The notes beneath the pieces were generated by a model. It was not told where the DNA came from and did not search any database. It saw nothing but the letters and a program-made list of their open reading frames with translations. Source: Octopus vulgaris (Eukaryota). Taken from it: a stretch of DNA of 64,000 nucleotides. Location of the stretch: the NCBI GenBank assembly GCA_951406725.2, contig OX597820.1, positions 112,530,001-112,594,000 on the forward strand, read 5' to 3'. Every line of letters begins with the position of its first letter. Within the stretch, counting starts at the first letter, position 1. The position numbers were made by a program, and so were the translations under genes. Shown piece after piece: positions 10,777 through 48,203 of the stretch.

Positions 10777-10781
<5 letters not shown>

Positions 10782-11061
10782 TGCAGTGTGGAAGGTGTTT
10801 ATAAGCCATTTAAGAAACACACAAAAACCGTTAGATTCACTTCAACATTTAAGTTTAATTTGTCAAAATATTTTCATCGCTTTGAGACCGCGACCTGTTC
10901 ACTGACAAAAGTTTGTGCAGCACAATGTTTTTTCAGTGAACAGGTCATGGTTTCAAACAGACGAAAATATTTTGACAAATTAAATTTAAATGTTGAAGTG
11001 AATCTAACGTTTTTTGTGTGTTTCTTTAATGGCTTATAAACACCTTCCACGCTGCAATTGT
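10777..11061. repeat. TA-flanked fold-back element (~130 bp arms) with variant hammerhead-like motifs
   Basis: 10777-10905 is inverted at 10933-11061. The ORF track shows mirror ORFs. Confidence 0.9.
10859..10909 (-). ncRNA. hammerhead-like motif, G3:C8 core variant
   Basis: tttgtca GTGAACA g gtcgc-ggtctcaaa-gcgat GAAA atat TT tgacaaa: 7-bp stem I, 5-bp stem II and palindromic stem III. Confidence 0.6.
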
Positions 11062-11155
11062 TTGCGTTCCAGCACACGATCTCAGATCAAGTCATTCGCT
11101 ATGCAAGTACATCTCCATATATATATATATACACACACACATATACAGCCATTGA

Positions 11156-13517: not shown

Positions 13518-14125
13518 TGATGTTTTATCAAGACAATGCATGACCCCACACTGCAAAGATCACAACACAGAAGATCGAAGAGCTTGGTTGGGAAAAAGTT
13601 CCTCCTCCACCTTATTCTCCCGACCTTGCTCCTTCAGACTACCATTTGTTTCGTAGTTTACAGAATCATTTGGGAAGACATAACTTTCGCAAGCCAGGAG
13701 GAGGTCAAAACTGACATTTCAGAGTTCTTCACTTTGAAACCAAAAGCGATTTACATTGATGGGATTAAAAAGCTTGCAAATAGATGGAAGGAAGTCATAG
13801 ATAAACATGGAAAGTACATTGATGATCAAATTTCAATTAAATATAATATTTGATCACTTGTTTTCATTATTCAAAATTCAGACAGAACTTATGGGATGAC
13901 CTGGTAGATAGCAAGCTGGCAGATTTGTTAGTATGCCAGGCAAAATGCTTAGCATCATTTCAGCTGTCTTTACCATCTGGGTTCAAATGCCATTGGGATT
14001 GACTTTGCCTTTGATCCTTTCGGGGTTGGAAAAATAAGTGCCACTCAAGCACTGGGGTTCATTTAATCAATTTAGCCTTTCCTCCAAAATTGCTGGCCTT
14101 GTGCCAATATTTTAAAGCAATATAC

Positions 14126-14164
<39 letters not shown>

Positions 14165-14169
14165 CATAC

Positions 14170-14233
<64 letters not shown>

Positions 14234-14242
14234 GTATGTATG

Positions 14243-14279
<37 letters not shown>

Positions 14280-14887
14280 GTATATTGCTTTAAAATCTTG
14301 GCACAAGGCCAGCAATTTTGGAGGAAAGGCTAAATTGATTAAATGAACCCCAGTGCTTGAGTGGCACTTATTTTTCCAACCCCGAAAGGATCAAAGGCAA
14401 AGTCAATCCCAATGGCATTTGAACCCAGATGGTAAAGACAGCTGAAATGATGCTAAGCATTTTGCCTGGCATACTAACAAATCTGCCAGCTTGCTATCTA
14501 CCAGGTCATCCCATAAGTTCTGTCTGAATTTTGAATAATGAAAACAAGTGATCAAATATTATATTTAATTGAAATTTGATCATCAATGTACTTTCCATGT
14601 TTATCTATGACTTCCTTCCATCTATTTGCAAGCTTTTTAATCCCATCAATGTAAATCGCTTTTGGTTTCAAAGTGAAGAACTCTGAAATGTCAGTTTTGA
14701 CCTCCTCCTGGCTTGCGAAAGTTATGTCTTCCCAAATGATTCTGTAAACTACGAAACAAATGGTAGTCTGAAGGAGCAAGGTCGGGAGAATAAGGTGGAT
14801 GAGGAACTTTTTCCCAACCAAGCTCTTCGATCTTCTGTGTTGTGATCTTTGCAGTGTGGGGTCATGCATTGTCTTGATAAAACATCA
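13518..14887. repeat. near-perfect ~1.37 kb palindrome (inverted duplication of mariner 3' end + SINE around a symmetric TA tract)
   Basis: 13518-14127 is the reverse complement of 14278-14887 with only about 2 visible mismatches. The ORF track shows mirror ORFs 13536..13853(+) and 14552..14869(-). Confidence 0.95.
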
Positions 14888-15901: not shown

Positions 15902-16330
15902 TATATATGCAGGTATATTGATGTGGGTGCGTATGTACATGTGTGTATCTGTCTGTGGGCGTTTATGTATTTTTATGTTAAACAGCACTGCTGGTTTAAA
16001 GAAAATAAGTGTTATCATAAAAAGGGGACTTAGCCAGTCAATAAATACAGATTGATAAAGTAAATAGCAAACTGAGATAATTACTGGAGTCAGTTTGATT
16101 AGGTAAAGCCTTTAAAGGTAAGTGTCCCAGAGTGGTCATACTCTAATGATGAAAACCAGTAAAAAAAAGGATTAACCACATACAGAAAGTAGTTGTAATA
16201 ATGTGATGTACAGTATTTATAAAAATGAAGAAAATGTTGTCAGATAATTAAATATATTTGCATGAATTGTTGGAAAAGTAAATTTCACACTCACCGGTAA
16301 AATTCCCACTTTTTTCTTATTTTTATTGTC

Positions 16331-16367
16331 CTAAAATTTTCGTTGCGTCTTGCAACCTTTTCAATAG
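16331..16367 (-). ncRNA. hammerhead-like motif, U3:A8 core variant, inside fold-back element 16285-16436
   Basis: cta TTGAAAA g gttgc-aagac-gcaac GAAA at TT tag: the same extra G and ultra-short palindromic stem III as the 10859 motif. Confidence 0.5.
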
Positions 16368-16825
16368 TTTTGACTCAAAACAAATTTTAGGACAATAAAA
16401 ATAAGAAAAAAGTGGAAATTTTACCGGTGAGTGTGTTAAATAATAAGGCACAAAAAGAAAATGACTCTCCAATAATTTCATTATTATTAAAACAGAATAT
16501 GCTTCAACACACGAACTCATATAAAGAATCTTGCAAACCAAATCCAAAAACGAAATAAATTTCACAGCTACTAAGGATAATACCAACCACTAAATTAACA
16601 AAATGAAATCTCTATTTTTTCAATATAACTCATTGAATCATATGTATCTAGCCAGAAGAAATGCTAATAACAACAACTACAACAGCAACAACAAAAACAA
16701 TATAAATAGTGGATTAAGCAGTGAAAACCTTGACATGTGTAATGAATCAGAGCACAAGTGCAAATAAATGCTAAGAGACCTTTATGAAACTTATATGCTT
16801 GTTAATGGCTTAACTGGTTGTTATA

Positions 16826-22086: not shown

Positions 22087-22119
22087 AATATTTATAAATA
22101 TACATAATATAAATGGTAT

Positions 22120-23262
22120 ATATATGCATGTATACACACATATATGTACATACTTACATATATATGTATATACATATGCATGTGTGGGCAAAGGACATCA
22201 CAGAACATAAACAACAAAAAATCCGAAAATATGGAATATGAATACATGGAATATGAACTTTTTTGTGAACAATGAAGGAAACAAATGGAAAACAAGTAAT
22301 GCAACATGAGGAACGACCCTTCATCAGTTGTCGACTGTTTTTTTAATCTGTATTTCGAGTATTTCGCAACAAGATATGTCTTCGATAAAACAGTTCTTCC
22401 CGTGAAGCAAATTAAATAAAATTTGGGATTTTGTGGAGGTTCAGAATTGGTAACAAAAACAGGACAGTGAAAACAAACAGGAAGGGCTGTTAAGTCTAAA
22501 CAAAGTGAGGTAATGAATGCAAAGAAGCAAGCTTGGACAGGAGACAGATAGGAATATGTCTGAATCGTCCAGCTGTGTCAGGAGGAAAGAAAGAAACACA
22601 AGTTAGGGAAAGAAAGAAATATGGCTGATGGTCACGTGTTTGCAGGAGTCTTGTAGTCTTCCTTTCTCTAATTTTTTCTCTCCCCTTTATCGTTCTCTTT
22701 CTGTCACTCTCTCTCCCTCACTCTTCCTCCTTTGCTCTCTCCCGTGGCTCCCACATGACCATCGACTATCTTTCTTTCTTTCCCTAACTTTGTTTCCTCC
22801 TTATACAGCTGGACGAATCAGTCGTATTTTTGTCTGTCTCCTGTTCAAGCTTGCTTCTTCACATTCCCTACTCACTCCGTTTAGGTTTAGCAACCCTTCC
22901 TGTTTGTTTTCACTGTCCTGTTTTTGTTACTAATTTTGACCATCCACAAAATCCCAAATTTTATTTAATTTGCTCTGTGGGAGCAACTGTTTTATCGAAG
23001 GTGCATCTTGTCGTGAAATGCTCGAAATATGGATTAGAAAAAACAATTGACAACTGATGAAGGGTCGTTCTTTATGTTGTGTGTCTTGTTTTCCCTTTGT
23101 TTCCTTTGTTGTTTGCAAAAAAGTTCTTATCCTATGTATTTGTAGTCCATATTTTCGTATTTTTTGTTGTTTACATTCTGTGATGTCTTGTGCTCACATA
23201 TGCGTATGTATATACGTATATATGTAAGTATGTACATATACATACGTATATATGCATATATA
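22120..23262. repeat. large diverged fold-back element (~500 bp arms)
   Basis: About 22120-22638 is inverted at about 22751-23262. Each arm carries CTGATGA (22320-22326 minus; 23054-23060 plus). Flanked by TA-rich tracts. Confidence 0.85.
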
Positions 23263-23477
23263 TATAAATTATTTATATTATTACATGATTGAATGCCATG
23301 CATCCATTTCCAAGTAAGTTTTATCTATATATACATATGCATATATAGATGTATGTATGTGTATATATCTATATCTATCTATCTATCTATCTGTCTATAC
23401 ACACACACACACACAGATATGTACATATGCATATATATATAAATATGTATATATTTATATTCATATATCTATATCTA

Positions 23478-44817: not shown

Positions 44818-45898
44818 AACGTGGCCGTAGCCAGCACCGCATTGACTGGCCTCCGTGCTGGTGGCACGTAACAAACACCATCCGATTGTGGCTGTGCCAG
44901 CCTCGCCTGGCCTCCGTGTCAGTGGCACGTAAAAAGCACCATCCGAGCGTGGCTGTTCGCCAGCCTCATCTGGCACCTGTGTCGGTGGCACATAAAAAGC
45001 ACCCACTACACTCACGGAGTGGTTAGCATTAGGAAGGGCATCCAGCTGTAGAAACACCGCCAGATCTGACTGGCCTGGTGCAGCCTTCGGTCTTCCCAGA
45101 CCCCAGTTGAACCGTCTAACCCATGCTAGCATGGAAAGCGGACGTTAAACGATGATGATGATGATGATGATGATGATGATATATATATGTATATAATGAA
45201 TCAAATTTGAACCAATCCTATGACTGGCACCCGGCAGTTGCCAGTGCCACTGGACTGACTCCTGTGCAGGTGGCAAGTAAAGAAACACCGTTTCAACCCT
45301 GTGCTTGAGGAGACCTACTGAGTCAAGTACATCAACATCAAAAATCAATGGAATTTATAGTTGTGATCCCTGTGCCAGTGGCACATAAAAAGCACCATTC
45401 GAACGTGGCTGATGCTTCCGTGCCGGTGGCATGTAAAAAGCACCCACTACACTCATGGAGTGGTTGGCATTAGGAAGGGCATCCAACTGTAGAAACACTG
45501 CCAGAACAGACTGGAGCCTGGTGCAGCCTCCTGGCTTCCCAGACTCCAGTCGAACTGTCCAACCCATGCTAGCATGGAAAGCGGACGTTAAACGATGATG
45601 ATGATGATGATGATGAACTTCTTTCAATTTCTGTCTATCAAATCTCACAAGGTCTGGTCAGCCCAGGGCTAAAGTAGAATATGCTTGCCCAAAGTACCAC
45701 ACATTGGGATTGAACTCTGAACTGTGCAGTTGGAAAACAAAGCTCTTAAACATGCAGCCATGCTTATACACATGTATTTGTTTATGTATCTCATCAGTAG
45801 AGTTACTTATACAAAAAGATTCAATTCAACACAAAATGATGTCATAAGAGTCATCCTCAAAGCAACCGTCTGAAGTAATGGTAACTGCTACTTCTTAC

Positions 45899-46043
45899 AT
45901 TGCTGCGATAAAGTTCATCCATCCAATTTATCAAGAACCTGAACCAGAGAAGACTAAACATTGATCAGTTCTAACAGTTTTACCAGTTCCTTAAGTCCTC
46001 CTTCCCTCCCTCTCTTTCCTCCTCCTCCTCCTCTCTCTCTTTT
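45899..46043 (-). other. candidate 5' UTR exon of the BMAL1-like gene
   Basis: Pyrimidine-rich acceptor cttccattctatctattccAG, purine-rich body and strong donor GTAAGA. There is a stop in the BMAL1 frame. Confidence 0.4.
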
Positions 46044-46370
46044 CTGGAATAGATAGAATGGAAGTGTTTTATTGCTTTTTATAGTAATGTCTGATGTAGT
46101 AATGGAATACATTGGAGTTTGGCTTAACGTGACAGAGAAGTTAGATATAATAAATGCAGATAAAAAGGGAAAATATAATAAAATATAAATGCAATACAGA
46201 ATTAATGCCTCTTGTATGGAATTTGGTATGTGGAAACTGTACAGAAACCATTATGTGAGTATATACATATATATATACATACATATATATATATGTATAT
46301 GTATATATATAAAGTTACATATATATGTATATATGCATGTGTCTGTGTATATGTGTATATATATATATAC

Positions 46371-46456
<86 letters not shown>

Positions 46457-46478
46457 CACACACACCACACACACATAT

Positions 46479-46518
<40 letters not shown>

Positions 46519-46603
46519 CCCTGCTTCCTTTTCCTGAGCGCCTATTAATAATAATACTGTAATTGTTCCATTGTTGTTGTTTTTTTGTTTTCCCGTTTGG
46601 ATT

Positions 46604-46635
<32 letters not shown>

Positions 46636-48203
46636 CATGTATTCACATAATGGCTTATGTGCAGTTTTCATATACCAAATTCCATGTGACTTGGACAACC
46701 CAAAGCCTTTTGAGTGGATTTAATAGATGGAAACTGAAAGAAGCCCATTGTATAAGTATATCTCTATGTATGTTTGTCTTTGTGTTTATTCCCACATCAC
46801 TGCTTGATAACTAGTGTTGGTCTGTTTATGTACCCCTGTAACTTAGTGGTTCAGCAAAAGAGACCGATAGAATAAGTACCAGGCTTAAAAAAAAATGTGT
46901 TCTGGGGGTCAATTTGTTGGGCTAAATCCTTGAAGGTAGTGCCCCAGCATGGCTGCAGCCCATTGACTGACATAAGTAAAAGATAAAAGATATACATGCA
47001 AGCACACACACACACACACACACACACACATGCACACACACACATGTATGCACGTCTGTATGTATACATAGATACACACACATATATATCATCATCATCA
47101 TCATCATCGTCATTTAACATCCACTTTCCATGCTGGCATGGGTTGGACGGTTTGACTGGGGTCTGGGAAGCCAGGAGGCTGCACCAGGCTCCAATCTGAT
47201 CTGGCAGAGTTTCTCCAGTTGGATGCCCTTCCTAATGCCAACCACTCCGAGAGTGTAGTGGGTGCTTTTTACATGTCACCAACATGAGGGCCAGTCAAGT
47301 AGTACTGACATTGAACATGCTTGAATGGTGAGCCAGTCAGGTGGCACTGGCAATGATCATGCTTCAATGGTGCTTTTTACATGCCAGTGTTACAGGACCA
47401 GTCGAGCGGCACTGGCATCAACCAAGCTCGAATCATGCCAATCACGTGATACTGTCATCGGCCATGACAATGACTTCACTTAACTCAACAGGTCTTTTAG
47501 CGCATTTTATTGCCCAATGATTGAAGGGTACTCTTAGACAGGCTGGTTATGCTACACTGGCATAGGCCAAACTTAGAAGCACCAAGTGTGTTGGTATTCC
47601 ACAGAAAATAAAGGAATTCAGGATGGCTTTACGCACTGAAGAAAGTGGCCAGCAAGCCTCTACAGAGAATCAAACCCTATACCTCTCAAAATTCCTGCTG
47701 AACACTGTACCATTAAGCGAAGAAAGCCCTGACATATATGTTTGTGTATGTATTTGTGTATATGTATGTATGCATGCGTGTGTGTGTATATTAAAATTCT
47801 TCAAGACAGTGCCTTGAAAAAGTTAAAGATATATATATTACTAACGAATCCCAAGAAGAGTGAAATGCACCTAACATTCCTATGAGTCACTGCTACAATG
47901 GTGTTCATTCTGTTTCAATATATATTGTTTTTAACACAACCTGTTTATAAAAGGCTTTCTCCCAGACAAAAACCACAGAATCATGCCTCTCAACAGTGTA
48001 TATATGTTAAGTATGATATGCAGATGTCTGTTGTAATCTAATGCTGTTTCACTTGCATTCTCTGAAATTTTTGCAGCCCAGCAAGCACTCACAATAAATA
48101 TTAGTGGATGCACTATACACTGTTTCCTTTATATATAAGCACAAATGTATATGCATATATGTGTGTGTGTGTGCATTTGTGTGTGCCTGTATGTGTGTGT
48201 GTA

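Follow-up and report, generated by a model that had tools for sequence, protein, structure and literature searches.

A hammerhead motif within an inverted insertion

The window, i.e., the whole 64,000-nt stretch of Octopus vulgaris DNA analysed here (contig OX597820.1, positions 112,530,001 to 112,594,000), is AT-rich and microsatellite-rich throughout. On its minus strand, positions 16367-16331 read cta-TTGAAAA-g-gttgc-aagac-gcaac-GAAA-at-TT-tag, a predicted minimal type I hammerhead with U3 at 16364 (Table 1). Positions 3 and 8 (hammerhead numbering) pair with each other as a tertiary contact when the ribozyme is in its catalytically active fold. The first-pass annotation had given the motif's sequence and place correctly, as confirmed letter by letter, and had compared it with a second motif at 10859; the two have a common architecture of extra G, 5-bp stem II and palindromic stem III, with G3/C8 at the second site. 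When the window was scanned with a hammerhead descriptor that allowed only Watson-Crick pairs at 3:8, three matches were obtained (U-A at 16364, G-C at 10902 and C-G at 2577), compared to 0.2 per window in a control of 20 shuffled windows; with a stem II of at least 5 bp the shuffled-window rate fell to 0.05 (20 shuffles). The third hammerhead-like motif (2528-2583, minus) has the canonical C3-G8, with a stem I of 6 bp and a helix III that is longer and self-complementary. In an Rfam scan of 16250-16600, none of the 36 matches at E <= 10 was to a hammerhead model, and the scan of the whole window gave, among the matches listed (150 of 351), only sub-threshold hairpin matches and no hammerhead.

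The motif lies in a 266-nt head-to-head inverted insertion with an 11-bp target-site duplication (TSD) and a one-sided tail of ~55 nt. The feature is larger than 16285..16436, the extent first assigned to it, and occupies 16290-16555 between two copies of TAAATTTCACA. In the numbering used for this family (family A; 0 is the C of stem I), an arm covering -9 to +81 on the minus strand is joined head to head with an arm covering +28 to +188 on the plus strand, and the complete hammerhead motif is contained in the former. The inverted repeat itself, with arms at about 16286-16340 and 16382-16435, is real (fold z = -16), but the motif does not sit in its loop, as had been proposed: half of it falls within an arm. 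In the predicted fold, the part of the motif from A14 onward (stem III, U16.1, U17 and the 3' strand of stem I) belongs to the arm and would pair with the opposite one. Since half of the motif is in a repeat arm, the window copy is likely unable to fold as a hammerhead. The ATG of the element is found in arm 2 at 16461, where the frame is broken by a local rearrangement (ATG ACT CTC CAA TAA); this ATG and the N-terminal peptide are conserved in sister families. A search with four query proteins found no ORF of a Penelope-like element (PLE) in the window. Other inverted repeats in the window include a palindrome at 13518-14887, with 685-nt arms, 98% perfect and without spacer, and further long ones at 22109-23272 and 45425-47280.

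Table 1. Positions of the insertion, its predicted hammerhead and the comparison motif in the window.
Feature	Position	Strand	Remark
Predicted minimal type I hammerhead	16331..16367	-	Descriptor match; 1,404 exact copies genome-wide
Stem I CTA/TAG	16367-65 / 16333-31	-	Part of predicted hammerhead
Core U3-U4-G5-A6-A7-A8-A9	16364-58	-	Part of predicted hammerhead
Extra G	16357	-	Between core and stem II of predicted hammerhead
Stem II GTTGC/GCAAC and loop AAGAC	16356-42	-	Part of predicted hammerhead
GAAA	16341-38	-	Part of predicted hammerhead
Palindromic AATT helix III	U17 at 16334	-	Predicted cut between 16334 and 16333
Left TSD TAAATTTCACA	16279..16289	+	Last 4 nt common with arm end
Arm 1: 5' part of PLE pseudo-LTR (pLTR), family positions -9 to +81	16286..16376	-	98% to natural family copy
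Head-to-head junction, 5 nt matching neither arm	16377..16381	.	Junctions vary between copies
Arm 2: pseudo-LTR from +28 to core end (about +134)	16382..16498	+	Pairs with arm 1 over its first ~54 nt
PLE tail, about +135 to +188, ORF start	16499..16555	+	One end only
Right TSD TAAATTTCACA	16556..16566	+	Matches left TSD
Family B motif used for comparison (G3-C8), inside a different palindromic insertion, from a related PLE-type family	10856..10909	-	Descriptor match

Family A and its Penelope-like relatives

A canonical hammerhead has a 6-bp helix I, a loop-loop tertiary contact and an Rfam match; here stem I is 3 bp and Rfam gave no match. The features of the minimal hammerheads (min-HHRs) of PLEs are found instead. 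The core follows the pattern N3-UGA-N7-N8-A9 ... GAAA ... UH, with U17 at its end; pairing at 3:8 is Watson-Crick, with U-A in 129/131 family A arms that cover both sites; an extra G stands between positions 9 and 10.1 in 128 of 135 arms; the G10.1-C11.1 pair is G-C in 120 of 140; and helix III is a tiny palindrome, A-AT-T. Whether the copy is short or long, stem I consists of CTA/TAG and then runs into a mismatch. It had been suggested that this stem is short because it is truncated; since the long copies carry only the same 3 bp, truncation is not the cause. Its length lies within the 2-5 bp published for helix I of PLE motifs (PMC4209133), and a distant PLE family in the same genome has a U3-A8 motif with a stem I of only 3-4 bp. 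A bulged extension of stem I (GUC/GAC), predicted in the fold of the window copy, was rejected as a family feature since position +39 is mostly A (104 of 173 family A arms), with C in 68.

The 37-nt motif is present in 1,404 exact copies genome-wide, the reversed control in none. The genome search gave 1,037 first-look candidates, 40 of which were scored. The short family A unit spans about -10 to +188, and 47 of 59 loci proved to be two-armed head-to-head insertions, although the proportions are biased, because loci entered the samples for their similarity to the query and, in the second set, for having the tail. The tail end (+174 to +188) lay at exactly one side in 45 of the 47 two-armed copies and at both sides in none; on the other side of those 45, the arm ended at about +134 in 38 and was shorter in 7. 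The absence of two-tailed copies is not attributable to the choice of samples. TSDs of at least 9 nt were present in 31/47 two-armed copies versus 5/300 in a swapped-flank control. They varied from 9 to 15 nt, the arms were unequal with variable ends, and the junctions were variable as well. One locus (L081) held a partial direct repeat. None of 47 arms started at the predicted cut (+33 to +35); thus, the genome gives no direct sign of cleavage. A cluster of arm starts at +18 to +32 in one set of loci (L001-L030) was a query effect and was absent from the other (L062-L090). In these two sets, 15 truncated arms start at the common 5' end, and 9 of them show G at a site that is mostly C in the template; this G may be a reverse-transcribed cap that marks the transcription start. 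Contigs of four presumed RNA runs cover the pLTR, without strand, ends or level, and are neutral on expression. A candidate GT..AG intron downstream of the motif was dropped, as its supposed 3' splice site overlaps the conserved ATG; the same contigs contained no GT..AG joint, although contigs cannot prove absence.

Some family A copies run further upstream, and a search with this upstream region yielded 30 loci; in 29 of these, picked for their upstream sequence, the motif lies behind the common 3' region. Still further upstream, the long copies contain broken RT and GIY-YIG frames. The 428-aa frame of one locus (L191) contains YVDD and a CX4CxxC linker as well as a GIY-YIG domain that matches Pfam PF01541 at 28.7 bits (cut-off, 22.6; E 1.7e-6), and the frame is flanked by an intact-motif pLTR downstream and an inverted pLTR upstream. 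In two others (L193 and L207), the tail continues into the ORF; the start codon of this ORF is an ATG located 81 nt after GAAA. The motif lies in a PLE pLTR in L191, L193, L200 and L207. No intact full ORF of family A was found among 150 listed protein matches, where the longest frame in a close copy was 665 aa. The family A RT matched Pfam RVT_1 below the cut-off (E 0.008) and another PLE RT at E 4e-9; it has DKS where PLEs usually have DKG, and its linker motif fits both the Neptune and the Nematis clade.

EN+ PLEs carry direct or inverted pLTRs that include the ORF start, a one-sided tail and TSDs of 8-10 bp (PMC3846280, PMC8557442). Family A likewise has the ORF start in a direct or inverted pLTR, a one-sided tail and variable TSDs; the RT with C-terminal GIY-YIG and CCHH is present in relatives of the window copy and not in that copy itself. 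This order of domains, the CX4CxxC linker, the inverted 5' pLTR, the one-sided tail and the AT-rich targets resemble EN+ PLEs of the Neptune/Nematis type with CX2-5CxxC linkers (Craig et al., 2021, PMC8557442). Compared to those elements, family A differs in DKS instead of DKG, in a tail of about 55 nt rather than 30-40 nt, and in an ORF of about 1,310 aa, as judged from an intact sister family.

Related families were found in the same genome. A young sister PLE family (L294-L323, e.g., L299 in the G000:C17:6331771 region; also L201) has about 60% protein identity to family A and open frames of 1,310-1,312 aa in 10 of 150 listed matches. Its motif has C3-G8, with C instead of the conserved A9 in all complete copies seen; a copy in L154 has A9. 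In one alignment, the L154 row was disregarded for its wrong coordinates, and the stretch from L172, which came from the wrong side, was left out. A more distant PLE family, with a 781-aa RT-GIY-YIG protein, carries the U3-A8 motif in both pLTRs, and the motif was found downstream of 13 of 30 GIY-YIG loci. This family has many intact 781-aa RT-GIY-YIG frames and, at L140:768-4468 (also L139), an overlapping upstream frame of 479 aa, which suggests a two-ORF or frameshift layout. Family B, represented in the window by the palindrome at 10781-11116, whose two strands each carry a G3-C8 hammerhead (decayed on the plus strand), has 402 exact copies of its 51-nt motif. Its tail ends at a codon homologous to that of family A. 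No RT/EN ORF was linked to it within 1.5 kb upstream in 30/30 loci, and a search with its peptide gave only short frames among the matches listed; the tie of family B to PLEs runs only through a 31-aa peptide.

The 3:8 pair between and within families

The first-pass annotation had taken the swap from G3/C8 to U3/A8 in two dissimilar families as covariation and, hence, as a mark of selection on a hammerhead fold. Across families, this was upheld. We scanned 80 evenly spaced 10-kb stretches (800 kb) with positions 3, 8 and 9 left free, and 10/10 matches, from four sequence families, were Watson-Crick at 3:8 (6 C-G and 4 U-A); shuffles of the same stretches gave 0.9 matches per set, 0.2 of them Watson-Crick. 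Similarly, all 35 motif variants in 288 loci were Watson-Crick at 3:8, the variants forming about 11 groups by eye that are not phylogenetically independent. Related PLE lineages carry U-A, G-C or C-G (families A, B and A2, respectively), and stem II shows compensatory changes among related families (GUUGC/GCAAC, GUCGC/GCGAC and GUCAC/GUGAC). A hammerhead-type fold is likewise supported. The two families are dissimilar in their DNA but not in origin: the ORF-start peptides are homologous, as the scores were reached by 0 (A-B), 0 (A-A2) and 1 (B-A2) of 5,000 shuffles, and A and B are therefore diverged relatives.

Within family A, the covariation did not hold. Genome-wide, position 3 is changed in 90 copies and position 8 in 32, and only two copies have both changed (one C-G, one C-C), where about 1.9 would be expected if the positions were independent (hand calculation). 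U3C accounts for 77 copies, mostly with A8, and A8G for 17; the excess of U3C may reflect sequence context, or else the spread of a small subfamily in which the 3:8 pair was already broken. In 176 distinct arms, and with 10 subfamily-diagnostic sites set aside, core A/T sites diverge by 1.6% compared to 2.0% outside (p 0.43), and G12 by 11.4% compared to 13.1% at other CpG (p 0.66). A lower raw divergence of the core vanished once these sites were set aside. Genomic copies of family A decay neutrally. As grounds for giving up its reading, the first-pass annotation had named full-length copies without an extended stem I, or independent variation of positions 3 and 8; formally, we observed both, the latter within family A. 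They count against truncation and against selection on genomic copies, not against the hammerhead fold of the parent element. We infer that selection acts on master elements during transposition, which would produce covariation between families and not within them.

Origin and activity of the insertion

Taken together, 16290-16555 is very probably a short, head-to-head inverted insertion of a PLE pseudo-LTR; the minimal type I hammerhead predicted in it has the known U3-A8 pair, and this copy is likely inactive. More than a thousand such decaying copies exist in the genome, and this one is ordinary. It had been proposed that the motif belongs to a new, uncatalogued hammerhead subclass that depends on dimerisation. 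The lack of an Rfam hammerhead match, the real covariation of 3:8 across families and a literature search that retrieved no natural G3-C8 speak for this proposal, yet we consider it very improbable, since all of its defining traits are covered by one report. Cervera and de la Pena (2014, PMC4209133) described PLE min-HHRs in pLTRs with U3-A8, about 1,300 matches in Schistosoma, with a nucleotide between 9 and 10.1, palindromic helix III, short helix I, low activity seen only in dimers, and pairs on opposite strands. Natural U3-A8 is also found in Perreault (2011, PMC3088659), a review treats dimer-dependent PLE hammerheads as established (PMC6765202), and the motif sits in a PLE pLTR as published. 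For G3-C8, the search gave engineered variants only; Lunse et al. (2016) or the supplement of PMC4209133 may list it. Dimer-cleaving PLE hammerheads are reportedly a subject of the work of Lunse and colleagues. The listing from a search on octopus, Penelope and hammerhead contained no description of family A.

Family A has close counterparts. It resembles the metazoan PLE min-HHRs, including Schistosoma Cercyon (PMC4209133), in its pLTR location, extra nucleotide, G10.1-C11.1, palindromic helix III, short helix I and U3-A8, as well as in occurring mostly as single truncated copies with opposite-strand pairs and many families per genome. Helices I and II are 3 and 5 bp, compared to 4-5 and 7-8 bp in Schistosoma and 2 and 6 bp in Drosophila virilis (PMC4209133); unlike the min-HHRs in the part of that report covered here, lineages related to family A also show G3-C8 and C9. 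With the Anolis Poseidon element PAc (Frangieh et al., 2024, PMC11167929), family A has in common a hammerhead near the ORF start and, by the course proposed below, two internal RT starts that bound a tail in the ORF start and uncleaved RNA as template. PAc differs in having C3-G8 and an ORF start inside stem II, whereas the ATG of family A lies 81 nt after GAAA, and its activity has been shown, whereas the family A ribozyme is predicted from sequence. The non-LTR retrozymes (bioRxiv 10.64898/2026.07.22.740005) are likewise non-coding and PLE-derived with type I hammerheads, but they form head-to-tail tandem arrays of monomers, while family A occurs as head-to-head two-arm insertions (the 47 of 59 loci above) or as 5'-truncated PLE ends.

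A short palindromic repeat with over 1,000 candidates and sub-threshold matches to plant miRNA hairpin models could also be read as a MITE, i.e., a derivative of a DNA transposon, or as a hairpin-RNA gene in which the motif is incidental. This we regard as scarcely probable at all: in MITEs, both the terminal inverted repeats and the short TSD are fixed, whereas the arms here are unequal, with variable ends and junctions, TSDs of 9-15 nt and a one-sided tail; the longer copies join an RT/GIY-YIG ORF; and every miRNA match is far under its gathering score.

For the PLE insertion, we propose the following course. The element's transcript would start about 10 nt upstream of stem I, and the RT/EN protein would nick both strands of AT-rich DNA about 11-12 nt apart. 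Each nick would prime reverse transcription of uncleaved RNA, beginning at either +188 or about +134, two sites internal to the RNA; head-to-head joining of the resulting pair of short cDNAs would complete the insertion. This course is modelled on the anole element, in which both strands are cut and extended, the hammerhead needs protein and unprocessed RNA is the main substrate (PMC11167929). Alternatively, the palindrome could arise by self-priming (fold-back) on a single template, as proposed for the head-to-head pLTR palindromes of rotifer PLEs with an antisense template (PMC3846280). Nine of the 30 loci in L001-L030 fit simple fold-back by hand count, and these nine are compatible with either model; of the rest, one is even and one complex. 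However, in 19/30 it is the shorter of the two arms that extends to the 5' end, the window copy included (hand count in a query-biased set), and for those loci fold-back of one cDNA is impossible. Both outer ends also lie at two fixed sites, as expected from two RT starts. Fold-back therefore seems to us an unlikely, if respectable, substitute for two priming events.

Whether the hammerhead of the parent element still cleaves bears on a further alternative. The parent element's ribozyme would cleave its RNA after U17, though weakly, and the cut would require either two palindromic helices III pairing in a tandem transcript or the element's protein; that it cleaves in this way, as a dimer or with protein help, is a reading we favour to a modest degree. 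The palindromic helix III fits dimer-dependent cleavage as published, although in a modelled cofold of two family A monomers the lowest-energy structure was not the hammerhead dimer. The 3-bp stem I, 2-bp helix III, U17 and U3-A8 are all marginal for activity, and the family A ribozyme may be very weak or vestigial. It is conceivable, at rather low probability, that the hammerhead is a vestige that has stopped cleaving and persists as a signal for protein binding or folding, serving RT/EN loading or translation. Consistent with this are the minimal stems, copies made from uncleaved RNA, the C at position 9 in the young sister family, the 77 copies with C3, mostly with A8, and the anole element, where hammerhead mutants left insertion in vitro unaffected (PMC11167929). 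Against it stand the 3:8 pair kept in all 35 variants, the C3G/G8C rescue at 3:8 in the anole element (PMC11167929) and the weak cleavage of those PLE hammerheads that were tested (PMC4209133, PMC11167929). The window copy itself is likely silent as a ribozyme owing to the competing hairpin of the modelled fold: a transcript through it would form a hairpin of ~55 bp that buries half of the core.

As a bolder extension, to which we assign less than even weight, one PLE clade could constitute a natural core mutagenesis series (U3-A8 in family A; G3-C8 in family B; C3-G8 with C9 in the young family with intact 1,310-aa ORFs), with compensatory changes in stem II and all members still cleaving with help from protein or dimer. 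If true, G3-C8 would be a natural active core variant of a kind not found in our literature search, and twin priming by a PLE dimer, from two fixed internal starts, would have left its in vivo record in the short palindromes. As it stands, the finding means little by itself: the PLE minimal hammerheads already known gain one more family, and the proposal of a new subclass is set right. The two-arm regularity, with its one-ended tail in 45/47 copies, bears on how PLEs make inverted ends, and related families with three different 3:8 pairs offer ready material on whether marginal ribozymes cleave and why PLEs keep them.
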